DNA of 42,800 bases. It comes from a virus (Duplodnaviria; Heunggongvirae; Uroviricota; Caudoviricetes). The notes beneath the pieces were generated by a model. The model saw only the letters and a list, made by a program, of their open reading frames with translations, was not told the origin of the DNA and did no database searches. The stretch spans positions 1 through 42,800 of IMG/VR virus record IMGVR_UViG_2703719347_000006; one strand, written 5' to 3'. The translations under genes were made by a program, and so were the position numbers. Shown one piece after another: positions 1-14,021 of the stretch (position 1 is its first letter; the number at the start of each line of letters is the position of its first letter).

Positions 1-1053
1 CTAGTAGTAATGGTCATAACCTCCGCTTTCTCTTCTGGCTCTGGATGCTCTCACTCGTGCTTTTCTTAACATCCTTAACAGCGGGTGGGTTTGTACTTTG
101 TTCGAGTTTATTGTCTGTGAGGATAGTAACTCCCTGCGCTCTGTCTCTGCCTCTTTGGTGACCGCTATCACTGATAAATCCCAATCGTGTTTGCTAATTA
201 ACGGTGCTTGGAACGGGGTGATTGGTGAGCGATTTATGTCTTGTCGTTTCAATGTACGCTGTATCTGTCGCTTAACTTTGTAGTTGTCTTTCCTTGATGC
301 CTGAATGGCTTTTAGTATGCGTCTTACAGCATGAAAGCCAGTGATAGAAAGTGTTTCTTTTTTTATCTCATGCCGCGCCCAGCCATTCGAATAACCCCAA
401 ACGTTGGCATCTGACCAATCATATAGGCTCTTGCTCGCCTCTCTATTAAAGTCATTTAACTTAGTTTCGGGTTTTGCCATGTAATCAATCTGTTTACCTA
501 TACACCTTGTAGGCTCTGAATATTGCTGACCTTTCAAATCTAGATCCCACTGGGGAGGAACATTTGATGGGATTGCATTGTTTGCCAGTGTTACCCATTT
601 GCTGACAATTTTGCCTGCTTGCCCATTAATGCTTCTTTCGTTCACCATAATTATTGCGTGTACATGCGGCTCTGACTGGTGTTGAGCCCACTCCATGACG
701 TAAACCCACTGATTGCCTTTCGAAGTCAACCATCTGGTAAGTGCCTTTAACGCTTTGTTGAATTTCTCTGGCGTTGTTCCCTTAACGGGTCTGAAGGTAA
801 AGGAGTAGGGGATACCACTAGTTGATTCGACATCCAGAGTAAACAAAGCTCGCCTCATTGTACGCCATTTCTTCTTTGTCCAAGCTGGTGGTATGCAGTG
901 GTTAGCCTTTGATGATTGGCGTTTATTCTCCGCCTTTAATTCATTACGTTTGTGCGTAACTGATCTCACATAAGCTAATGTGCGACCATTGATGTGATTG
1001 ATTACGGCTTGTGATTTTGTGGATAGACTCGCGTCTTTATCGTATAATTCCAT
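1..1053 (-). CDS. Rolling-circle replication initiator-like protein (HUH endonuclease motifs)
   Basis: 350-aa ORF; motifs in canonical order FTLDV (motif I), HVHAII (HUH, motif II), DYMAKP (Y-x-x-K, motif III) with about 60-aa spacing; last visible gene of the leftward integrase operon. Confidence 0.45.
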   Translation of the reverse strand: MELYDKDASLSTKSQAVINHINGRTLAYVRSVTHKRNELKAENKRQSSKANHCIPPAWTKKKWRTMRRALFTLDVESTSGIPYSFTFRPVKGTTPEKFNKALKALTRWLTSKGNQWVYVMEWAQHQSEPHVHAIIMVNERSINGQAGKIVSKWVTLANNAIPSNVPPQWDLDLKGQQYSEPTRCIGKQIDYMAKPETKLNDFNREASKSLYDWSDANVWGYSNGWARHEIKKETLSITGFHAVRRILKAIQASRKDNYKVKRQIQRTLKRQDINRSPITPFQAPLISKHDWDLSVIAVTKEAETERRELLSSQTINSNKVQTHPLLRMLRKARVRASRARRESGGYDHYY

Positions 1054-1121
1054 GTGTAAAGTTCATATATTTCAATTGCTTCAAAGCCGACTCTCGCAAA
1101 GTCGGCTTTCTGCTTTGTCAA

Positions 1122-1508
1122 TCACAGGTATTTGGTTTCAATACCCTTGTAAACAGTTCTAAGCGTGTCTTCAGGCACTTTACCCACCAGCCCACGCAAC
1201 AACGACAACGTTATGTTTACCTTACGCAATGTCTTTACATATCTGGCGTTCGTCCTCCAGATCTTCAATGTTTCGTCTTTATCGCTGTGGTATGCTTCTA
1301 AATTGCGTTCTGTGACGTGATACGCCTCTGTTTTAAACTGCTCAACAGGAATTCCCCAATCGTTGCGTAACAGCGTTAAAACGCGACTACGTTCGTGATT
1401 TCCGGCTTTCCTTAATATGTCGTCAAACTCTTTTGGGGTAAGCTTCCTGCCACTTAGTAGGATATCGCGTATATTCGCGGCGACCTGAGAGCGTGTAAGA
1501 GTGCTCAT
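1122..1508 (-). CDS. Hypothetical protein (128 aa)
   Basis: ORF with 4-nt ATGA-type overlap with the upstream 64-aa gene (1505-1508), suggesting coupling; no recognisable motif. Confidence 0.4.
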   Translation of the reverse strand: MSTLTRSQVAANIRDILLSGRKLTPKEFDDILRKAGNHERSRVLTLLRNDWGIPVEQFKTEAYHVTERNLEAYHSDKDETLKIWRTNARYVKTLRKVNITLSLLRGLVGKVPEDTLRTVYKGIETKYL

Positions 1509-1699
1509 TTTCGTCCCCCCAGAAATCTGTCGGCAAATTGATCAAGGCTGGAGGCAAGCCACACCCGGCGCTTGCGTCCATTGATGGTCTGATTTATATA
1601 GGGAGGAAAGCTTCGGATATATCGCTTTAACTGATAGAAGCGTGACAGACAGACGCCAAGATATTCTGCTGCGTCTTTAGCGGTCAGGTAATTAATCAT
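1505..1699 (-). CDS. Small HTH DNA-binding protein (excisionase/MerR-like helix-turn-helix)
   Basis: 64-aa ORF with motif LTAKDAAEYLGVCLSRFYQL typical of HTH_17/excisionase-type DNA-binding domains. Confidence 0.4.
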   Translation of the reverse strand: MINYLTAKDAAEYLGVCLSRFYQLKRYIRSFPPYINQTINGRKRRVWLASSLDQFADRFLGGRK

Positions 1700-1780
1700 T
1701 TTATTCCCTTACTGTTGTACCAAAATGTAATATGGAGGAGACTTCCTGTCTCCCCAAATTACTCTACAATTTTTGTGCGA

Positions 1781-1972
1781 TTAAATCAGATCTATTACTA
1801 AGTAATCATCGCCAGAGGCAATGCCGATAGCTTTTCCACCGCTGGTGGATTTCACATCATAAACCCAGGTGCTGGTGCTCACCTTTTGTGGCTCTGATCT
1901 AATCAGTGCCGCGAAGGTTTCAAAATCAACATGGGTTACGTTCAGCTTTTGATTGGTAGGTTTCAACTGCAT
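1781..1972 (-). CDS. Hypothetical protein (63 aa)
   Basis: Short ORF co-oriented with neighbours; no motif recognised. Confidence 0.3.
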   Translation of the reverse strand: MQLKPTNQKLNVTHVDFETFAALIRSEPQKVSTSTWVYDVKSTSGGKAIGIASGDDYLVIDLI

Positions 1973-2020
1973 TCTTAATACCTAATAACGTATTGTTTGT
2001 ATCCTGTTTGTTTCTGTTCT

Positions 2021-2212
2021 TTAGTTACTACGCGATTCGGCTATACGTTGATCGATCCAGTCATCGATCTCGCTTTCAATAAAAGCTATTGCGCGAGCAC
2101 CAATCTTGACTGATTGGGGGAATTGTCCTCGGCTCATCAGAGCATATACCCACGCCTTGCTATAGCCAGTGCGTTTCAAAACCTCAGATAGCCGAATCAG
2201 CGACTTTTTCAT
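2021..2212 (-). CDS. AlpA-family transcriptional regulator (P4 Vis-like)
   Basis: 63-aa ORF; sequence LIRLSEVLKRTGYSKAWVYALMSRGQFPQSVKIGARAIAFIESEIDDWI matches the AlpA/Vis small HTH family pattern; downstream of a P4-type integrase. Confidence 0.6.
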   Translation of the reverse strand: MKKSLIRLSEVLKRTGYSKAWVYALMSRGQFPQSVKIGARAIAFIESEIDDWIDQRIAESRSN

Positions 2213-2368
2213 ATCTACCTCGTAATACGTTGCTTGACTATGTGAGATAGTAAATCATTGTTTTTTTAAGTTTTCTGTGAATTTGGAGAAAAAATTTTTG
2301 GGAATAGAATTACCCCAAATTGGGCGTTATTTTTTAGTTCTAACGCACAATTTGGGAACATCCTTCCT

Positions 2369-3115
2369 TTATTTTGGACGCTTTTTGGTTGCTTTTTTCT
2401 TAAATTTGGGGGCGTACTTATCCAAAGCGTTCGTTAGCAATCTCCGAAATGTATCTGGGTGGGTATCGCTGTCTTCATCGTTCCCGAATATTATGTTGTT
2501 TTCTATTACTTGGGCACTAACCCTATTGATACTAAGGTTTCCTCCACTATGGAAATCTTTGCTTGATTCAAATAAGGCAATCGCCATTCCGGCGATCATC
2601 TTTAAAGCCGTATCTTTTCCTCTCCAGTTTTGTTCTCTTTCTACTTTTTTTGACAGTGCTCCAATTTCTGGTTCGTTATCTGGAACATTCATATCCAGTT
2701 CTGGGAAGAAGTTCACAACCTCGGAGCGCTTGAAATAAAACGAATCGTAAGACCCATACCAATCATCCTCATCATCGTGATATAAAAAGTCTTCCCCTTT
2801 CCTAACGTTGAAAGTCCCTTCTTCCCCCGGTATCGGGCTCTCCCTGTATTCATGCCCCATAGCCAGAAGACCTAAAAACTCCACACACTGCTTTTCAAAG
2901 TCGTCATTAGTTGTAAAACCTGATACCCAATCGAACTGATAAAAGCCCAGCCCCCCTAAAGTATCTGGTTTAGCTTTGCTCAATCTGTAGTTACTTAAGA
3001 TAGCGGCAGCGATCATTCTTTCATTTTCATTGTTTAGTCTTGCCAGTTCGCTGATCAGATTACCAAACCAGATTTTATCTTCTGACTCGTTATAAAACGC
3101 ATCTAGTCCTGTCAT
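2369..3115 (-). CDS. Acidic hypothetical protein with basic C-terminal tail, translationally coupled to integrase
   Basis: ATG at 3115-3113 lies 1 nt after the integrase TAA stop (3119-3117); 248 aa from this ATG (ORF track gives a GTG start at 3124); D/E-rich core, C-terminal KFKKKATKKRPK; AT-rich by eye. Confidence 0.5.
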   Translation of the reverse strand: MTGLDAFYNESEDKIWFGNLISELARLNNENERMIAAAILSNYRLSKAKPDTLGGLGFYQFDWVSGFTTNDDFEKQCVEFLGLLAMGHEYRESPIPGEEGTFNVRKGEDFLYHDDEDDWYGSYDSFYFKRSEVVNFFPELDMNVPDNEPEIGALSKKVEREQNWRGKDTALKMIAGMAIALFESSKDFHSGGNLSINRVSAQVIENNIIFGNDEDSDTHPDTFRRLLTNALDKYAPKFKKKATKKRPK

Positions 3116-3116
3116 C

Positions 3117-4403
3117 TTAGTCACGGCGTGTTCTCCTTCCGAACTCGTAAGGGCTTATATGTATTTCTCGATTGGCGTCCAGATAATCTGCCCACCATTG
3201 AAGCATTAGTTTGCGCTCTTCTAAGTAATCAGCCTTGTGCTTGTAGGCTCTTTTAACGTCTTTATATTCTTTGTGGCTCATCTGGCGCTCTACTGCGTCC
3301 TCCTGCCACAAACCGGACTCCATCAGGGAACTACAGGCTGTGGCACGGAATCCATGTCCAGTTACGTCCTCTTGCGTGTTATAGCCCATTAAGCGTAATG
3401 CCTTGTTTACCGTGTTTTCACTCATCACGCCTTTGGTGTTTCTTTCATTCGGAAACACAACATCGTAGCTTCCGCTTAGTTCTCTCAACTGCTTTACAAT
3501 AGAAACAGCCTGACGGCTAAGAAGCACGATATGTTCGTCTTTTCCCGTTTTTGTGCCACGGGTGGAAAACCTCACACCATCGATAGGCTCTCTTTTTTTA
3601 GGGATAATCCACTCAGCCCGATCAAGGTCAAACTCTTTCCAACGGGCAAACCTTAACTCGCTTGAACGAACAAATGTCAACATGGTTAGCTCAATGGCAA
3701 GGCGGGTAAGAGGATTACCTTTAAAGCTGCCCAATCGAGTGAAAAAGTCTGGTAAATCTCTGGGATGTAGTGCGGCATGATGCTTAGTTTCATATTGCAT
3801 TAACCGGACATCGAGATCATTCGTGATGATTTCTGTCTTAATGCCGCTCAGACGGGCGCTATGTATGATGTCCTTAACTCGTTGTTTAAGTCGGTTGGCT
3901 GTATCGTGTTTCCCGGCGTCATCTACCTTCTTAAACAAAGGTAAAATTGTCATCGCCTCCAGTTTGCGAATATCCGAAGTGCCAATGTGAGGGAAAATAT
4001 ACATTTCAAGGCTTCTAAGTACGCGTTTTCGTTGGTCTTCGTTCCACATCTGGTGGCTTTCAACCCATTGACGTCCTATTGTCTCAAAAGTGAATGCGCC
4101 TTTTTCTTCTGCTTTTGCTGCTCTTTGCTCTGCTTTGGGATCTATCCCCTTGACTAACAACTTTTTGGCGTTGTCTCGTTTTTCTCTGGCGTCTTGTAAG
4201 CTAATGGTTGGATATACACCAAAAGCAAGTCTGTCTTCTTTCTTATCTGATGGGCGGCGATACTTCATTCGCCAATACTTCGACCCGGTCTGGGATACTT
4301 CAAGATAAAGACCACCACCATCAGACAATTTATAAGTTTTGTCTCGTGGCTTAGCTGCTTTGCACTGACGGTCTGTTAATTTGTTGAGGGTATTTCTGGA
4401 CAT
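3117..4403 (-). CDS. int: Tyrosine integrase, P4-type (arm-binding N-terminal domain)
   Basis: 428-aa ORF; N-terminus KLSDGGGLYLEVSQTGSKYWRMKYR typical of P4/CP4-57-type integrases; C-terminal catalytic region with HGFR...Y. Confidence 0.85.
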   Translation of the reverse strand: MSRNTLNKLTDRQCKAAKPRDKTYKLSDGGGLYLEVSQTGSKYWRMKYRRPSDKKEDRLAFGVYPTISLQDAREKRDNAKKLLVKGIDPKAEQRAAKAEEKGAFTFETIGRQWVESHQMWNEDQRKRVLRSLEMYIFPHIGTSDIRKLEAMTILPLFKKVDDAGKHDTANRLKQRVKDIIHSARLSGIKTEIITNDLDVRLMQYETKHHAALHPRDLPDFFTRLGSFKGNPLTRLAIELTMLTFVRSSELRFARWKEFDLDRAEWIIPKKREPIDGVRFSTRGTKTGKDEHIVLLSRQAVSIVKQLRELSGSYDVVFPNERNTKGVMSENTVNKALRLMGYNTQEDVTGHGFRATACSSLMESGLWQEDAVERQMSHKEYKDVKRAYKHKADYLEERKLMLQWWADYLDANREIHISPYEFGRRTRRD

Positions 4404-4935: not shown

Positions 4936-5232
4936 TCAGTCATTACTGATAGCGCCAAAGCGTGAGCGGTAATTACGCAGGCGCGGGTCGATATATTCAG
5001 GGAAGTGGGTATATGTGGCTTTGCGGAATGGTCGGATTGATGTCTGGTAAATTCGCTCGCGTTCTTGTTTCTCTGCAAGCCATATACAATGGCGAAATTC
5101 CTTTTCCTCTTTCGTTTCCTGCGGTAGCGACATTATCCGGTCGTAGTTTTTCCTGAATTTATCCAGCACCTCCGATACGGAATTGCCGGAACAGCGGCGC
5201 GGGTCATCTGCACCATACTGAGGCGCTGGCAT
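4936..5232 (-). CDS. Hypothetical early protein (98 aa)
   Basis: ATG at 5232 preceded by AGGAG-type RBS; directly downstream of ssb in the leftward operon. Confidence 0.45.
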   Translation of the reverse strand: MPAPQYGADDPRRCSGNSVSEVLDKFRKNYDRIMSLPQETKEEKEFRHCIWLAEKQERERIYQTSIRPFRKATYTHFPEYIDPRLRNYRSRFGAISND

Positions 5233-5245
5233 GATTTTCTCCTGA

Positions 5246-5752
5246 TTAAATTGCGTGAATAGCGTGACGAGGGAAGGGGAGAGTTACTGGTGCAAAGGGT
5301 ATATCGTCGTCAAAATCCATCGGAGGTTCGTTGTGTTGTGCTGGTGATGATTGCTGCTGTGGCTTCTGTGATTGCCTGCTGGCTGCTTGTTGTTTGCTGT
5401 CGCCAATGCCGCCAAGCATTTGCATCACGCCATTAATTCCGACATGAACCTCGGTTGTGTAACGGTCTTGCCCTGACTGGTCTTTCCACTTTCTGGTTCT
5501 CAGCATTCCCTCGAAATAAATCTGATCACCTTTTTTCACATACTGCCCCACGACCTCAGCCAGTTTCCCGGATACAGCAACACGATGCCATTCAGTCAAT
5601 TCCTTTTGCTCGCCAGTATTTTTATCTCGCCATTGTTCTGACGTGGCTATTGTCAGGTTAGCGAACGCTGTACCTGATGGTGAGTATCGAACTTCCGGGG
5701 CTTGTCCTACCCGACCAAGGATAATCACCTTATTTACGCCTCTGCTTGCCAT
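5246..5752 (-). CDS. ssb: Single-stranded DNA-binding protein
   Basis: 168-aa ORF with OB-fold SSB N-terminus and acidic C-terminal tail DFDDDIPF. Confidence 0.85.
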
Positions 5753-6460
5753 TTATGCCGCCTGTTTTAGCTCGTTAACTCTGATGTTCATTACCTGAAC
5801 GCATTTAGCCTGCGCCTCCTCGTTGCCAGCCATTAATTGCCAGTCACGATGATAACGCTCGATGAGTTTTTTCTTGTCAGTTTCTGTTGACGCATAATCG
5901 CTGAAGTCTTTCAGGATTTGTTCGCAGTCAACCGATGGAGATTTCTGGTTGGTATTTTCTGGTGATGGTTTGTTATCTGATGCTGGGATTGCCCAGCCCG
6001 GCAGCGATGGAGGGAGCCAGTAAAATCCTGTTCCATCCTTGAGTTTTGCCCTGTGCCATCCCTGCTTTTTGTCGAGAGATGTTTGTGCGAAACCTTCCTC
6101 AAGGTTATACAGATACCGACCGATTCCCCACTGAACGGCAGCGCGCTTCATTGCACCGGAACGACCACCTTTGACGGCTTCTACCTGCGTGTTTTCAGCA
6201 GCATCCCATTTGGTTACCCATTCGGAATCAATCTTTATTGATATGCCGCATTCAACGCCGCCGTTGTTGGGAATATCGCGGTATTCATTGCGCCATCCTG
6301 CTTTGCCGCAAACATCGTCCAGGCGTTTCATGATTGCCCGGTTCGTGACATAAGCCAGCACCATAGCCCACACCTTGCCATCGCGTGTTTTACCGCTTTG
6401 CTGTATTCGCCATTCGATATCTTCAGGGCTGAATGGCTCATCGAATTTGTTCAAATCCAT
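5753..6460 (-). CDS. ssDNA-annealing recombinase (Rad52/Sak- or Erf-like)
   Basis: 235-aa ORF immediately upstream of ssb in the position of lambda bet; motif KRAAVQWGIGRYLY. Confidence 0.55.
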   Translation of the reverse strand: MDLNKFDEPFSPEDIEWRIQQSGKTRDGKVWAMVLAYVTNRAIMKRLDDVCGKAGWRNEYRDIPNNGGVECGISIKIDSEWVTKWDAAENTQVEAVKGGRSGAMKRAAVQWGIGRYLYNLEEGFAQTSLDKKQGWHRAKLKDGTGFYWLPPSLPGWAIPASDNKPSPENTNQKSPSVDCEQILKDFSDYASTETDKKKLIERYHRDWQLMAGNEEAQAKCVQVMNIRVNELKQAA

Positions 6461-6559
6461 AATTCACCTCAGAATGGACACGGCCCAAGGAAATAACGCT
6501 GATTTAATACTTCGACTCGGGACAAATTAAGGCATACCCGCATTCCTTCGCGGTCGCCA

Positions 6560-6718
6560 TTATGGCGATACCAGAGAGCTTTCTGCGTGTACATGCGTCT
6601 CTGTAACTTGCTCTCCTTCACTGTGGTTGCAAGTGACATGAATATCTCCTTCGTTACCGATTAATTCTTTCATCTGACGAATGAATTCTTCGTCTGACCA
6701 GTTATCTGTAAAACTCAT
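6560..6718 (-). CDS. Hypothetical small early protein (52 aa)
   Basis: ATG overlaps the TGA of the upstream Kil-like ORF (ATGA at 6715-6718); AGGA RBS; not in the ORF track because under 60 aa. Confidence 0.3.
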   Translation of the reverse strand: MSFTDNWSDEEFIRQMKELIGNEGDIHVTCNHSEGEQVTETHVHAESSLVSP

Positions 6719-6867
6719 TTCCTGCGATACCATGGAAGGTTGATAGCTGATTTCATCGCTTTATTTGCTTCAAGCCACATTTTTGAATCACCAATAAATC
6801 TGGCTATTACTGCTTTGTTTTGTGCTGCACGAAGCATCTGGTGATTGATGGCTATTTCATTGCGCAT
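6715..6867 (-). CDS. Kil-like small protein
   Basis: 50-aa ORF; segment AVIARFIGDSKMWLEANKAMK resembles lambda Kil as recalled; start overlaps stop of the cIII-like ORF. Confidence 0.4.
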   Translation of the reverse strand: MRNEIAINHQMLRAAQNKAVIARFIGDSKMWLEANKAMKSAINLPWYRRK

Positions 6868-6986
6868 AACGCCTCCAGTTGTTTCTTTGCTGCTCTGATT
6901 AATTGTTTAACTCGGCGTGATAATTCAGATTCGTGCGGGTAGAAAGCGGACATGACGCCGCTACCCGCGAGCTGAAAGTGCATCAT
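6852..6986 (-). CDS. cIII-like small protein (FtsH-inhibitor family)
   Basis: 44-aa ORF with strong AAGGAG RBS; HFQLAGSGVMSAFYPHESELSRRVKQLI resembles lambda cIII as recalled. Confidence 0.4.
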   Translation of the reverse strand: MMHFQLAGSGVMSAFYPHESELSRRVKQLIRAAKKQLEALCAMK

Positions 6987-7211
6987 GGGTAACTCCTTAT
7001 ATTTGATTGCATAACGAAAAACGCCTCGAGTGAAGCGTTATTGGTATGCATATAAAAAGGCCCTCACATTGGAGGGCAAAGAAGATTTCCAATAATCAGA
7101 ACAAGTCGGCTCCTGTTTAGTTACGAGCGACATTGCTCCGTGTATTCACTCGTTGGAATGAATACACAGTGCAGTGTTTATTCTGTTGTTTATGCCAAAA
7201 GTAAAGGCCGA

Positions 7212-7835
7212 CTATGCGGCCTCGGAAGGAAGTCCAATCATCTTATTCAAATCTTCTACCCGTAAAGCAGGAAGTGCTGTACTTGCTTTATCTGCTTCTT
7301 CTGGTAGCAATTCTTTGCTTTCAGGCCAAACTTCAATAAGTCGCTTAACTGTTGTGACTGAGTTCAAAGCAGCCCATACATTTGATTCGATATCCTTTTT
7401 CTTGGCTTCAAGTTTTTGTTGCAATGCGCAGATTTCATCAAACCTTTTTGTTATTTCGTGTTCTGCGCTAAACATGCATTTATCTTTGGTCGGAGTAGGG
7501 AGCAATATATCTTCGCCGTTGCCGTCTTTCCCATATGAATGCCATCCAACCCTTCTGCCAGATACAGTCAGATAAATTGAAGTAGAACTAACATCGTATG
7601 AGTAAAATGAACATCCCATCTTTTCAAGTTCTTCACTTATAGCTACCAACTTGGATGATAACTGATCCACTTCCTCAGTTTTCTTTTTACCGCCAAACGC
7701 AATAACTCTGGCGTCAAGTGCAAGCTGGTTCTTTAACTTTGTTACTTCTTTAAGTTCAGTGAAAACCCCAGACTTAATTAAAGCGTTACGAGCGATTTCC
7801 TCTTTCATTCTCGTAGTTAAGCGGATTGATGACAT
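7212..7835 (-). CDS. Hypothetical early-left protein (207 aa)
   Basis: ATG at 7835 with GAGGA RBS, 11 nt after the N stop; the track's TTG start at 7895 would overlap N and is rejected. Confidence 0.5.
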   Translation of the reverse strand: MSSIRLTTRMKEEIARNALIKSGVFTELKEVTKLKNQLALDARVIAFGGKKKTEEVDQLSSKLVAISEELEKMGCSFYSYDVSSTSIYLTVSGRRVGWHSYGKDGNGEDILLPTPTKDKCMFSAEHEITKRFDEICALQQKLEAKKKDIESNVWAALNSVTTVKRLIEVWPESKELLPEEADKASTALPALRVEDLNKMIGLPSEAA

Positions 7836-7846
7836 ATTAATTCCTC

Positions 7847-8173
7847 TCAAATAAGTGGTTTGCTGCCTAATTTCATTTTCTGGCGACCAACACAAGTCAC
7901 ACCCATTTCACTGCGTGGCTTGCTGTACCATGTGCGCTGATTCTTGCGCTCAATACGTTGCAGGTTGCTTTCAATCTGTTCGTGGTATTCAGCCAGCACC
8001 GTAAGGTCTATCGGATTCAGTGCGCTTTCTACTCGTGATTTCGGTTTGCGATTCAGCGAGAGAATAGGGCGGTTAACTGGTTTTGCGCTTACCCCAACCA
8101 ACAGGGGATTTGCTGCTTTCCATTGAGCCTGTTTCTCTGCGCGACGTTCGCGGCGGCGTGTTTGTGCATCCAT
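7847..8173 (-). CDS. N: Antitermination protein N
   Basis: 108-aa ORF beginning MDAQTRRRERRAEKQAQWKAANPLL (arginine-rich motif); matches lambda N as recalled; preceded by nutL. Confidence 0.9.
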   Translation of the reverse strand: MDAQTRRRERRAEKQAQWKAANPLLVGVSAKPVNRPILSLNRKPKSRVESALNPIDLTVLAEYHEQIESNLQRIERKNQRTWYSKPRSEMGVTCVGRQKMKLGSKPLI

Positions 8174-8371
8174 CTGGATTCTCCTGTCAGTTAGCTTTGG
8201 TGATTGGATGGCCGGCGCTGAACCCCGGCTTACTGGTTAGAGCGCCCGCACTACCAGTGACGCTGTCTTGAGGCGCAGATTGGTTACTGCTTGCCATGAG
8301 CGCTGTTTATACATTGGTCGAGCATCAGCCTGCTCATTCATCCAATCCCAAAGCCTTCTGCTTTGAATGCT

Positions 8372-8401
8372 GCCCTTCTTCAGGGCTAAATTTTTAAGAG
8401 C
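8372..8401 (-). promoter_or_regulatory. nutL (boxB hairpin plus boxA) in the N leader
   Basis: Plus-strand gcccttcttcagggc (8372-8386) is the reverse complement of boxB GCCCTGAAGAAGGGC; adjacent ttaagagc (8394-8401) gives boxA GCTCTTAA on the transcript. Confidence 0.7.
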
Positions 8402-8442
8402 CTCACCTTCAATTGTGGTCAGTGCGTCCTGCTGATGACTAA

Positions 8443-8471
8443 ATAGTACGATTTGTACTTTATCGAGTCAA
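8443..8471 (-). promoter_or_regulatory. Putative pL promoter with overlapping operator
   Basis: Minus strand: -35 TTGACT (8471-8466), 17-nt spacer, -10 TACTAT (8448-8443); dyad AGTACGATTTGTACT (8445-8459) overlaps spacer and -10. Confidence 0.45.
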
Positions 8472-8534
8472 TACAAAATGTTCTAAATATAATTAGTTTT
8501 TTATAACGCTTTGTATTTAATGGGTTTATATTTT

Positions 8535-8567
8535 GGAAAAAGAAAACCCGGCGCTGAGGCCGGGTTT
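8535..8567 (-). terminator. Rho-independent terminator after the cI-linked 348-aa gene
   Basis: Stem cccggc (8547-8552) / gccggg (8559-8564) with 6-nt loop; on the minus strand followed by a U-rich run; 12 nt past the ORF stop. Confidence 0.6.
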
Positions 8568-8575
8568 GGAGTGCA

Positions 8576-9622
8576 TCACTCTGGTTCGCTGGGGAATATA
8601 TTTATCAATTGCCCTGTTGAAATGTGCCCATTTTCTACAACCTCTAGGTATGAAATTTCAACAGTTGATTCTTTGGCTACAGCATTCAAAAACTCAAGAA
8701 GCTCATCAGTAGATGTTATGTCGGCTGAGGTCTTTATGGTGAAAGATTCACCATTTGAAACCCTTATGACGTCAATATTTATGTCCTGATTTGTTTCTCC
8801 CGAGCGACGAACGCCCGTGACATAAAAGTTATCTCTTCTAGTTTCCTTTTTTCGATCAATTGATTGTCTTTGGTTTAAGGTATTCAACTGTTCTCTATTT
8901 ACCACTCTCTGACCAATTGTTACCCTCTCAACTGACGAGTCTTGAGCAAGCTTTTTAAGCAACTTGCTTTTACCATCCTCGCCGTGAGCCAGAACCTCTC
9001 TGCTAATGTTTGTTTGACCGCTAATCAACAACTTGAGCACATTGTCTTGTGCTTCGTTTACCGCTTTGGTGCTTTTTTCCACCAATTGCACCTGAGAATC
9101 TTGGTTATGTCGCTGTGTTTCGTAGTACTCATTGATCCACTTATAGCCTACCGTGCTGGCAGCTAAGACGATAGCGGCGACGGCGCATAGTGCTTGCCTT
9201 CCTGTCATTTTGCCTATCGCTTGAGTAAACACTGTCACCACTCCGTTTACAATCGGATCTGAGTCACCATCCGCTTGGCTTGAGCCTTCGCTTATTCGGT
9301 AGACAATATCCAGCAAACCTTTCTCTGCATCTTTTAGCTTCTGCCGATTATGAGTGCTGTGACTGACTACCGTAAATGCTTTTTGTATTTCATGCGTAAG
9401 CTCTGCCATACCAAAAAGCATTGACGCAGTCAATGAAGAATTATATCTATTTGGATCGCCTTTTACATTAATATTGATCTTTGGCCATCCACTGAAAACT
9501 ACGTTAGGGAATGTGAAGTCGCTTGAGTCGATGTCCTTCCTTCCGAGCATTTCTGTTACAAAAGATACAAAGTCGTCTTCTGACTTGATAACATATTGCG
9601 CAGGTTGATCAATCGCTGACAT
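8576..9622 (-). CDS. Membrane protein of unknown function in the rexAB position (candidate lysogen-expressed exclusion protein)
   Basis: 348-aa ORF; ATG 25 nt after the cI stop with AAGGA RBS; one predicted TM segment ALCAVAAIVLAASTVGYKWI followed by a coiled-coil-like stretch; AT-rich by eye; terminator immediately downstream. Confidence 0.7.
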   Translation of the reverse strand: MSAIDQPAQYVIKSEDDFVSFVTEMLGRKDIDSSDFTFPNVVFSGWPKININVKGDPNRYNSSLTASMLFGMAELTHEIQKAFTVVSHSTHNRQKLKDAEKGLLDIVYRISEGSSQADGDSDPIVNGVVTVFTQAIGKMTGRQALCAVAAIVLAASTVGYKWINEYYETQRHNQDSQVQLVEKSTKAVNEAQDNVLKLLISGQTNISREVLAHGEDGKSKLLKKLAQDSSVERVTIGQRVVNREQLNTLNQRQSIDRKKETRRDNFYVTGVRRSGETNQDINIDVIRVSNGESFTIKTSADITSTDELLEFLNAVAKESTVEISYLEVVENGHISTGQLINIFPSEPE

Positions 9623-9647: not shown

Positions 9648-10307
9648 TCACCCAAACGTCTCTTCTGGCCACTGGCTGGCGATAACTTTCCCTACAACGG
9701 AACAGCTATCATTGCATGGGATCATTGGATATTGCGGGTTTAGTGGTTGTAGGAACACCTGACCGCTATCCCTGATCAGTTTCTTGAAGGTAAACTCGTC
9801 ACCACCAAGTCTGGCTATGCAGAAATCACCTGGCTCAACAGCCTGCTCAGGGTCAACGAGAATTAACATCCCGTCAGGAAAGCTTGGCTTGGATCCTGTT
9901 GGTGCGGTCATGGAATTACCTTCAACTTCAAGCCAGAACGCACAATCACTGGCTTTTTTGGTTGTGCTGACCCATCTCTCCGCATCACCTTTCGTAAAGG
10001 TTCTAAGCTCAGGCGAGAACATCCCGGCCTGAACATGAGAAAAAACAGGGTACTCATATTGTTTTTTAACGGGGGCAGATGAGTATTCGCCAACAGGTGA
10101 AAATGTACCGTCGTGGTTGAATGAGACGTTATCAATACCAAGGTATTTAAACACCACACCAATCTCGTCAAGAGATGGATGACGAGATCCGCGCAACCAG
10201 TGACCAATTCCACCCTGCGTCATACCAAGCTCTTCAGCTAACTTCTCTTGAGTTATGCCGAGCTCTTTCATTCTGGATCTAGCCAGTTCATACCATTTCA
10301 TTTTCAT
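9648..10307 (-). CDS. cI: cI-type prophage repressor (HTH N-terminal domain, LexA-like S24 C-terminal domain)
   Basis: C-terminal half [21 protein letters not shown]...[15 protein letters not shown]...FTFKKL matches lambda cI as recalled; N-terminal HTH differs; start at 10307 or 10301 preferred because the track start 10370 falls inside the pR -35. Confidence 0.85.
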
Positions 10308-10316
10308 ACCCTTATT

Positions 10317-10331
10317 ATTACGCTCTGTACT
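10317..10331. promoter_or_regulatory. Putative operator site (oR, cI-proximal)
   Basis: ATTACGCTCTGTACT shares the 13-mer TACG-N5-GTACT with sites at 8447-8459 and 10377-10389. Confidence 0.45.
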
Positions 10332-10364
10332 AAAACCATCCACGCACAAGATGTATTTTTTTGT

Positions 10365-10393
10365 TTGCATTCTAAAAGTACATATCGTATTAT
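10365..10393 (+). promoter_or_regulatory. Putative pR promoter with embedded operator
   Basis: -35 TTGCAT (10365-10370), 17-nt spacer, -10 TATTAT (10388-10393); operator-like 13-mer at 10377-10389 lies in the spacer. Confidence 0.5.
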
Positions 10394-13435: not shown

Positions 13436-13467
13436 AGGCCTGCTGGTAATCGCAGGCCTTTTTATTT
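13436..13467 (+). terminator. Rho-independent terminator after helicase gene (tR2-like position)
   Basis: Stem aggcctgc (13436-13443) / gcaggcct (13452-13459), 8-nt loop, followed by ttttattt. Confidence 0.6.
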
Positions 13468-13482
13468 GGGGGAGAGTAAATC

Positions 13483-13689
13483 GTGGTTGAGTTTATGCTC
13501 GTCGCACTCAAATGCGTTGGCGTTGGATGGATTCTTCTGACGTTTTTTATTGTTCTGCATAGCTACATTCGTCTTGTGAATGACGGTAAAGATCCATGGT
13601 ATACGTTGTTTGGCGCTGCATTTGTCTGGGTGATTATCGGTGTTATGCCTGTCGCTGTAGCAAAAATGGCGTGGCGTTTTGTGAGTTGA
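13483..13689 (+). CDS. Small membrane protein (68 aa)
   Basis: Two hydrophobic segments; first gene after the terminator in the nin-like region. Confidence 0.4.
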   Translation: MVEFMLVALKCVGVGWILLTFFIVLHSYIRLVNDGKDPWYTLFGAAFVWVIIGVMPVAVAKMAWRFVS

Positions 13690-13706
13690 ACTGAGGGTAA
13701 GTATCG

Positions 13707-14021
13707 ATGGACGAATCAAGAAAGCAGTTTGAGGAATACGTTGCCAAAAAATTGAAATTACCATTCGAGATGATAACCGAGGCAAGAAATGGTGATAGGT
13801 ACTTCGCATTTTCAAGCATGGATATTCGTCACTCCTTAAATGAGTGGTGGACTTTATGGCAGGCATCGCGAGCAGCTATTGAAATAACCGCGCCAAAGTT
13901 TATCGACAGCAGAGAAGCATTAACCAAAGGGTTTACTGTTGATTATTCCAATGGCTTCGGCGATGGAATGGATGCTTATGAGGAAAACATCCGCGCTGCT
14001 GGAGTCAAGGTGAAGGAGTAA
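13707..14021 (+). CDS. Hypothetical nin-region protein (104 aa)
   Basis: ORF tightly packed before ninB-like gene; no motif recognised. Confidence 0.45.
   Translation: MDESRKQFEEYVAKKLKLPFEMITEARNGDRYFAFSSMDIRHSLNEWWTLWQASRAAIEITAPKFIDSREALTKGFTVDYSNGFGDGMDAYEENIRAAGVKVKE

Follow-up and report, generated by a model that had tools for sequence, protein, structure and literature searches.

Among the described relatives of the phage protein reported here, those of the Pseudomonas phages M6 (gp56) and SN1 (SN1_019) are encoded inside a thymidine-hypermodification cassette upstream of a family-A DNA polymerase, where the homologue adjoins aGPT-Pplase1 and lies near a hydroxymethylase. The name of their family, Nmad5, derives from comparative genomics of this M6/SN1 context; the family was reportedly defined by Iyer et al in 2013, and its Pfam entry, PF18757, bears the full name 'Nucleotide modification associated domain 5'. 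In this study, we examined an Nmad5-family gene at 7212-7835 on the minus strand of a 42,800-nucleotide stretch of phage DNA (IMG/VR virus record IMGVR_UViG_2703719347_000006, positions 1 to 42,800; Caudoviricetes), which is referred to as a whole as the window. By synteny, the gene lies in the N-to-cIII slot of lambdoid phages; it is in this interval that lambda keeps ral and sieB, as an earlier sequence-only reading of the window had recognized. The results indicate that the membership of the gene in the Nmad5 family is secure, and we tentatively propose that its product is a non-catalytic accessory binding or adaptor protein that acts on phage DNA replication/recombination or on host takeover.

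Genetic information on an Nmad5 gene is available for Dhillonvirus phages. Mutants of these phages that escape the Tmn defense system carry K296E (ΦSMS22) or K216E (ΦSMA8) in 'nmad5', and reverting the escape mutation brings Tmn sensitivity back; phages in which nmad5 is deleted still form plaques and do not escape Tmn, and the gene was not clonable, apparently owing to toxicity (PMC11846954). According to a later preprint, the direct Tmn trigger in T2 is RIIB, which was described as an early replisome-associated protein. The Dhillonvirus Nmad5 protein (ΦSMS22 CDS6 and ΦSMA8 CDS7) is homologous to the window protein in the C-terminal half, being ~31% identical to it over window residues 104-203, shares with it the WPE module and an LN--(I/C)G(L/I)P tail and, being deletable, is accessory like the window gene, whereas it differs in having a larger insert in the β region. 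Its K296 aligns to R165 of the window protein, in T-V-K-R165-L-I-E-V-W-P-E, the most conserved block of the family. The gene of Escherichia phage SM_S22 (PP627283.1, 5005-6009, plus strand) is annotated as encoding 334 amino acids (aa); its first ~200 nt overlap a head scaffold gene on the other strand, and the family alignment starts at about residue 80 (MRLTKDIKNQ). The true length is probably ~254 aa, judging from the alignment, with the first ~80 annotated residues untranslated, and this would account for the 80-residue numbering offset between K296 in SMS22 and K216 in SMA8.

As for M6 gp56 and SN1_019, their identity to the window protein is ~32% over residues 121-207, with the same C-terminal module, whereas the M6 cassette (aGPT-Pplase, kinase, radical S-adenosylmethionine enzyme, pyridoxal phosphate enzyme, and hydroxymethylase) is entirely missing from the window. 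No study of the lambdoid Nmad5 gene was found in the literature, and the phage copies are annotated as hypothetical.

Family membership, conservation, and predicted fold

The window protein matched PF18757 with an E value of 1.3e-71 and a score of 241.4 bits against a cut-off of 27, residues 4-203 of the protein being aligned to positions 1-206 of the 206 in the profile and, hence, to its full length. The window gene is a member of the Nmad5 family, and the description of it in the sequence-only reading as 'unassigned', with no motif, no longer holds, because PF18757 covers the whole protein. A match was also obtained with PHROG 1965 (function unknown), and the Escherichia coli copies are named 'Nmad5 family putative nucleotide modification protein' in RefSeq. 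Searches of PDB sequences, made both with the protein alone and with the profile of the family, yielded no match. There was no significant match in NCBIfam, and 0 families of the PADLOC defense-system hidden Markov models were matched.

Of 5,426 complete E. coli genomes, 211 contained the same gene, which was also found in 80 retrieved prophage contigs. The protein was ~97% identical to the copies of mEp235, HK244, and Stx1a-converting phages, ~95% identical to those of Stx2a phages over residues 34-207, and 95-100% identical to prophage copies; at the DNA level, the identity was ~97-99% for the phages HK542 (~98.5%), HK244, mEp235, Kapi1, and PhiR12. Thus, the window gene is nearly identical to genes that are already catalogued under a known family, and it is an ordinary one, found in well-known laboratory phages. 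An exhaustive profile search indicated that the Nmad5 family comprises 2,489 clusters at 50% identity. Among the best 150 of the 2,489 clusters, the lengths were 131-229 aa, nearly all being ~190-215 aa, and no domain fusion was found among these 150 or among the best 120 of the 162 hits in a 5.8-billion-sequence database, which were likewise ~200 aa long. The standalone window protein of 207 aa conforms to this family norm of a single domain of ~190-215 aa. The ratio of nonsynonymous to synonymous polymorphism (pN/pS) was 0.33 for 60 distinct lambdoid alleles, indicating purifying selection. Taken together, the Pfam E value, the number of clusters, and the pN/pS value indicate that this is a real gene and not a chance open reading frame (ORF).

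The gene runs on the minus strand from ATG at 7835-7833 to TAG at 7214-7212 (207 codons), which confirms the gene call of the sequence-only reading. A mechanical ORF list contained a longer frame of 227 aa from TTG at 7895, running into N. This start was not adopted because of the overlap with N and because every homologue begins at the ATG of the 207-aa frame, with M-S/T-x-R-L-T.

Conservation was determined from alignments of 59 and 86 family sequences. The invariant or near-invariant positions are R5, K21, R43, the G48-G49 turn, and G93 in the N-terminal part; T162, K164, R/K165, L166, W170-P171-E172, K174-E175-L176, and P178 in a module; and L188-P189-A190, D195-L196-N197, and I200-G201-L202-P203-S/T-E in the tail. 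The window protein carries all tested signature residues of the family, and the module had a pN/pS of only 0.06 in the same set of lambdoid alleles. AlphaFold2 gave the same confident model with 30 and 86 aligned sequences, with a predicted local distance difference test score (pLDDT) of 86 and 87 and a predicted template modeling score of 0.71 and 0.74, respectively. In this model, helices are predicted at 8-22, 24-47, and 50-72, followed by a β-hairpin region at 86-100 with short strands, a long helix at 127-158, three short helices within 163-183, a low-confidence stretch at 183-192, and a short helix at 193-199. The protein can be divided into the following predicted regions.

Residues 1-160: bundle of helices into which a β-hairpin is inserted
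Residues 161-183: 'TVKR-L---WPE--ELLP' module
Residues 184-192: disordered linker
Residues 188-205: terminal peptide LPA--V-DLN--IGLPSE

Few segments are as well conserved as the tail (183-207), but its pLDDT was 44-52 even with 86 sequences. Conservation combined with persistently low confidence is usual for short linear motifs that become folded upon binding to a partner, and the tail may be one of these. No solved structural relative of the model was found, and the family alignments contain no conserved Asp/His/Cys/Ser set of the transferase, kinase, or hydrolase type. Thus, the lack of an enzyme-like fold, of catalytic-type residues, and of fusions favors a non-catalytic binding role, and, as far as the model can tell, the Nmad5 protein is most likely not an enzyme.

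More specific assignments were also considered. The window protein has an isoelectric point (pI) of 6.2 and a net charge of -1 (family median pI, 6.9; range, 5.0-9.8). A DNA mimic of the Ocr/ArdA type was rejected because the protein is near-neutral, and no similarity of this kind was found in Pfam, PHROG, or PDB. The β-sliding-clamp binding consensus is QL[SD]LF or QLxLxL; the tail, (D/E)-L-N-x-(L/M)-(I/V)-G-L-P, lacks Gln, and its invariant residues are Asn, Gly, and Pro, so that a β-clamp-binding motif was rejected as a resemblance only. An SAP/HeH DNA-binding motif in the tail was likewise rejected, as the protein stops after the first helix and there was no Pfam SAP match. A Pfam scan at E≤1 gave only Nmad5 as significant and no similarity to Ral or SieB, the presence of Ral and SieB models in that scan being unverified, and there was no Pfam match of the Nmad5 protein to the RecBCD inhibitors Gam, Abc2, and gp5.9.

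The lambdoid cassette and the neighborhoods of distant relatives

The features of the early-left region are as follows, in the direction of transcription; the early genes of the window were assigned by Pfam scans.

8443-8471, minus strand: pL-like sigma-70 promoter (TTGACT-17-TACTAT) driving the early-left operon, from a consensus scan
8372-8402, minus strand: nutL, consisting of a boxA-like GGCTCTTA at 8402-8395 and boxB GCCCTGAAGAAGGGC at 8386-8372, read from the sequence, the hairpin being found also in the scan
7847-8173, minus strand: N antiterminator gene (108 aa), an ORF with 98.5% DNA identity to the annotated N of HK542
7841-7848, minus strand: Shine-Dalgarno sequence GAGAGGAA of the Nmad5 gene, read from the sequence and located inside the ~20 nt that travel with the gene
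7212-7835, minus strand: Nmad5-family gene (207 aa and TAG), from Pfam, PHROG, alignments, AlphaFold, and pN/pS
7195-7223, minus strand: terminator-like hairpin GAGGCCG-catagt-CGGCCUU with a U-rich run, over the Nmad5 stop codon, from a hairpin scan
7020-7077, minus strand: two more terminator-like hairpins (7077-7060 and 7039-7020), lying between the cassette and cIII, from the hairpin scan
6852-6986, minus strand: cIII (Pfam)
6715-6867, minus strand: Kil (Pfam)
5753-6460, minus strand: Rad52/22-type annealing protein (Pfam)
5246-5752, minus strand: SSB (Pfam)
4936-5232, minus strand: Abc2, anti-RecBCD (Pfam PF11043, E 5e-60)
3117-4403, minus strand: integrase (Pfam)

A lambda-type N is encoded by the ORF that precedes the Nmad5 gene (8173→7847). 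The stop codon of N, TGA at 7849-7847, is 11 nt ahead of the Nmad5 ATG and overlaps the Shine-Dalgarno sequence of the Nmad5 gene, in agreement with the spacing and the good ribosome-binding site (RBS) described in the sequence-only reading. The HK542 record labels the site equivalent to the promoter 'similar to coliphage lambda PL'. The pL-like promoter and the downstream leader resemble the lambda pL leader, and boxB of the window is identical to that of lambda nutL. With a pL-like promoter and a nutL boxB located upstream, the Nmad5 gene belongs to the early-left operon, and the consensus scan found no promoter-like site between pL and the gene. An Rfam scan over 6900-8600 gave nothing near gathering scores. 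Leftward from pL, the operon contains N, the Nmad5 gene, two to three terminator-like hairpins, cIII, Kil, two small ORFs, and then the recombination genes.

The hairpin at the Nmad5 stop codon is modestly stable (-13 kcal/mol, with a z-score of only -1.2), and its T-run is broken in the window copy (TTTACTTTT). The hairpin and T-run are present in nearly all of 74 full-length lambdoid copies, with a better T-run (TTTATTTTT) in most. It is a candidate for the first pL terminator (tL1-equivalent), being graded only as such owing to the interrupted T-run and the modest fold stability. If it functions, the Nmad5 gene would lie in the N-independent, immediate-early part of the pL transcript.

In the 74 copies, the last ~20 nt upstream of the gene (TTATTTGAGAGGAATTAAT) are constant, whereas the sequence farther upstream is variable. 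N with the 11-nt gap precedes the gene in 55 of them, and a different upstream sequence does so in at least nine. The Nmad5 gene is a self-contained mobile cassette with its own RBS, coding sequence, and terminator-like hairpin. The N variants next to the cassette differ in their N-terminal and central parts and are the same in the last ~24 residues (…KPRSEMGVTCVGRQKMKLGSKPLI), which suggests, as the simplest account of the shared C-terminus, a mosaic recombination boundary inside N. Among the 67 lambdoid loci with enough flanking sequence, the annealing protein was of the Rad52 type in 23, the Erf type in 18, and the RecT type in 13, and Abc2 was present in 47. A dedicated partner of one recombinase family was, hence, rejected. 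The accessory nature that the sequence-only reading had assigned to the gene was borne out by its limited occurrence in E. coli genomes, by the cassette structure, and by the deletable Dhillonvirus homologue (PMC11846954). No homology to a characterized recombination or replication protein was found, the tie to such genes being one of neighborhood only.

To describe the neighborhoods of distant relatives (25-48% identity), we called the ORFs in 80 loci around them, clustered the neighbors, and scanned these with Pfam, and, in 77 diverse viral loci, we counted on either side of the gene the two closest neighbors encoded on its strand. Upstream, the neighbors were a DUF2800 PD-(D/E)XK nuclease (29), an Enc34-type SSB (28), and a cI-type repressor (11); downstream, they were the family-A DNA polymerase PolA (30), ParB-HTH (5), DinI (5), and RecT (3), with the rarer AAA_24 (Sak4-like; 2) and ExoX/RNase T (2) and one each of Arf, T7 gp5.9, and three methyltransferases. 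The top 25 neighbor families in these 77 loci did not include aGPT-Pplase, hydroxymethylase, or 5-hmdU kinase. The recurrent gene order was DUF2800 nuclease, SSB, Nmad5, PolA, and VRR-NUC. Independent contexts were Nmad5-DUF7173-AAA_24-DUF669, Nmad5-Rv2179c-type exonuclease…PolA, a lambdoid early-left region in which MT-A70 and SSB accompany Nmad5, and, in Pseudomonas phage Amjad_SA, DUF3799 exonuclease-Nmad5-AAA_24. A PAPS-reductase, ParB-like, or DNA methyltransferase gene was located near Nmad5 in a few loci.

Proteins without a Pfam family also recurred in the distant replication module: one of ~300 aa upstream of the DUF2800 nuclease in 28 loci (for example, L121:4653-5555) and one of ~80 aa after PolA in 16 loci (for example, L117:10686-10925).

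Proposed function and rival explanations

The reading that we favor, with due reserve, is that of a non-catalytic accessory binding or adaptor protein. Besides the lack of enzyme-like features, it is based on the conservation of both a basic/acidic module and a disordered terminal peptide; on the early replication/recombination neighborhoods, including the pL operon that the window gene shares with a Rad52-type protein, SSB, and Abc2; on the dispensability and apparent toxicity of the Dhillonvirus gene and the phenotype that follows there when a charge in the conserved module is reversed; and on the description of RIIB, the Tmn trigger in T2, as an early replisome-associated protein. In the proposed mechanism, the cassette, which lies behind N and ahead of the first terminator-like site in the pL operon, would be co-transcribed with N, so that its product may appear immediately early after infection or induction, and repression of pL would keep it unexpressed in lysogens. 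The protein would consist of an elongated helical bundle with a β-hairpin cap, followed by the K164-R165-L166…W170-P171-E172…E175-L176-x-P178 module and then by a flexible linker and the C-terminal peptide L188-P-A…D195-L-N197…I200-G-L-P203. The module and the terminal peptide may dock on a partner conserved throughout Proteobacteria, which could be either a protein of host DNA metabolism or the replisome/recombination machinery, and the Nmad5 protein would, thus, serve as an accessory adaptor or a host-takeover factor in the early replication/recombination toolkit.

Several points weigh against this proposal. No biochemical study of any Nmad5 member was found in the literature, and a model without a recognizable catalytic site does not prove non-catalysis. 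The conserved disordered tail could equally serve self-assembly. The co-occurrence of the lambdoid gene with three families of annealing proteins indicates no fixed phage partner. Early phage genes in general are more likely than others to be found close to replication genes, and the neighbor counts are without a background control. Furthermore, the 28 SSB-Nmad5-PolA loci collapse to ~3 lineages at 70% Nmad5 identity, with 30-50% identity between lineages, so that the arrangement outlasts deep divergence but represents few independent observations. The Dhillonvirus gene, finally, is a solitary one that is surrounded by head genes and read from the strand opposite to theirs, whereas the window gene is in an early operon.

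The sequence-only reading had leaned toward an anti-restriction or anti-defense factor, and an immediate-early protein that would neutralize restriction, abortive infection, or a host nuclease such as RecBCD is an explanation that we consider rather unlikely. The location in the ral/sieB slot, with co-transcription with N before the first terminator-like hairpin, and the sporadic, cassette-like occurrence would suit such a role. Some of the neighbors (Abc2 in the lambdoid loci, T7 gp5.9, DinI, and Arf) modulate host nuclease or SOS functions, and the lambdoid recombination locus is described in the literature as a hotspot of such conflicts. The proposed binding role overlaps with counter-defense in this respect, because Gam, Abc2, and gp5.9 are both residents of recombination loci and counter-defense factors. 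However, the Pfam, PHROG, and PDB searches revealed no similarity to characterized anti-defense or anti-restriction families, and the protein is non-acidic and, hence, not a DNA mimic, so that the earlier suggestion gained no support from these results. The window phage, moreover, has Abc2 against RecBCD already. As to the experimental evidence, the Dhillonvirus copy is dispensable and its point mutant escapes Tmn, but wild-type Nmad5 gives no Tmn protection, and the ΔNmad5 phage is still sensitive, only K296E escaping (PMC11846954). The sole defense link of Nmad5 is this indirect genetics, namely, the K→E change at the equivalent of R165. In addition, the motifs are near-invariant in phages of Escherichia, Pseudomonas, Vibrio, and Bordetella, which would be atypical of a protein chasing variable defenses; with this invariance over unrelated hosts, a conserved housekeeping target is more plausible than a defense target that evolves fast. 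The fixed SSB-to-PolA position in replication modules, which is kept down to 30% identity, also argues against counter-defense.

That Nmad5 is an accessory subunit, acting as a scaffold or specificity factor, of a base-modification pathway (hypermodification or methylation) seems improbable to us. The place of M6 gp56 and SN1_019 in a thymidine-hypermodification cassette and the few loci with a DNA methyltransferase, ParB-like, or PAPS-reductase gene close by are in favor of it; however, the M6/SN1 association may be a positional coincidence, the hypermodification cassette having been inserted upstream of PolA, in the slot that Nmad5 also takes in phages lacking this cassette. The Pfam scans found no base-modification enzyme on either early arm of the window, and the window Nmad5 is not part of a DNA base-modification pathway. 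The enzymes of the M6 type were outside the top neighbor families of the distant relatives, the Dhillonvirus copy is solitary, and the protein has neither a catalytic residue set nor an enzyme fold. The Nmad5 membership is still valid without base-modification neighbors, since these are a contextual attribute of some members and not a sequence criterion. That Nmad5 acts together with N on RNA polymerase, as an accessory of transcription or antitermination, is a very remote prospect. The frequent position behind N, with the same 11-nt junction, and the co-inheritance of the last ~24 N residues even where the rest of N differs could be taken as signs of such cooperation, but the majority of the family belongs to phages that lack N, where the gene stands in replication modules or by itself, and a link to N function is, therefore, unlikely. 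Moreover, the lambdoid copies behind a different upstream sequence do not fit it, and the mosaic boundary suggested above is the simplest explanation of the C-terminus that the N variants share.

A bolder form of the binding/adaptor reading, about which we are doubtful, is that Nmad5 is misnamed and would be a non-catalytic early hub, occurring in at least 2,489 phage protein clusters, which docks through the C-terminal peptide and the basic WPE module on a replisome/recombination protein conserved in Proteobacteria and couples or hijacks this machinery for phage DNA, the resulting complex, and not any DNA modification, being what membrane sensors such as Tmn monitor. The family name is probably misleading: a large family, early in lambdoid infection, has been named by guilt by association only, and the name fails for the window phage and for most of the relatives examined. 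If the binding/adaptor reading is true, HK542 and mEp235 would offer a simple system for finding the conserved partner, and there would be a route to explaining how one charge change alters Tmn sensing, which is relevant to therapeutic phage engineering.

Other features of the window and comparison with known systems

The right arm of the window is a standard lambdoid set, comprising O, a DnaB-type helicase, NinB, NinG, a phosphoesterase, Q, a holin, and a small terminase. Between Kil and the Rad52-type gene, there are two small overlapping ORFs of 56 and 57 aa (6469-6733, minus strand), which match PHROGs 1723 and 2123 (category 'other', labeled 'recombinase'); they share ~80 nt in different frames, so that one or more of their starts or calls may be incorrect. 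An ORF of 348 aa (8576-9622, minus strand) is located between the cI-type repressor gene (9648-10370) and pL, the slot in which lambda carries rexAB. It matched only PHROG 6191 (function unknown) and had no Pfam or PADLOC match, and a strong hairpin with a T-run is located 3' of it, at 8567-8544 (minus strand). This ORF is a candidate for a lysogen-expressed exclusion or defense gene. In the otherwise plus-strand nin region, a minus-strand ORF of 134 aa (13462-13866) lies between the genes of the DnaB-type helicase and NinB; it had no Pfam or PHROG match and is possibly a moron, or it may be spurious. The region to the left of the integrase (1-3124, minus strand) contains an ORF of 251 aa without a known family (2369-3124), one of 128 aa (1122-1508), and one at 1-1053 with a weak match to rolling-circle Rep ORF2/G2P. 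In E. coli genomes, a 'rolling circle replication-associated protein' is annotated next to the same integrase.

Compared with known systems, the window locus is closest to HK542 (HK542_033), HK244, mEp235, Kapi1, the Stx1a and Stx2a prophages, and PhiR12, in which the Nmad5 gene has the same position, RBS, and stop-codon hairpin, and from which only the flanking mosaic differs, in the type of recombinase and the variant of N. Lambda Ral and SieB are positional analogues of the window gene and have no sequence or fold similarity to it. Gam, P22 Abc2, and T7 gp5.9 are small non-enzymatic binders of host DNA-metabolism proteins and are also counter-defense factors. Like Nmad5, they are encoded by small accessory genes of recombination loci, and Nmad5, too, is predicted to act by binding and not by catalysis. 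They are without sequence or fold similarity to Nmad5, which is conserved in a far wider range of phages.

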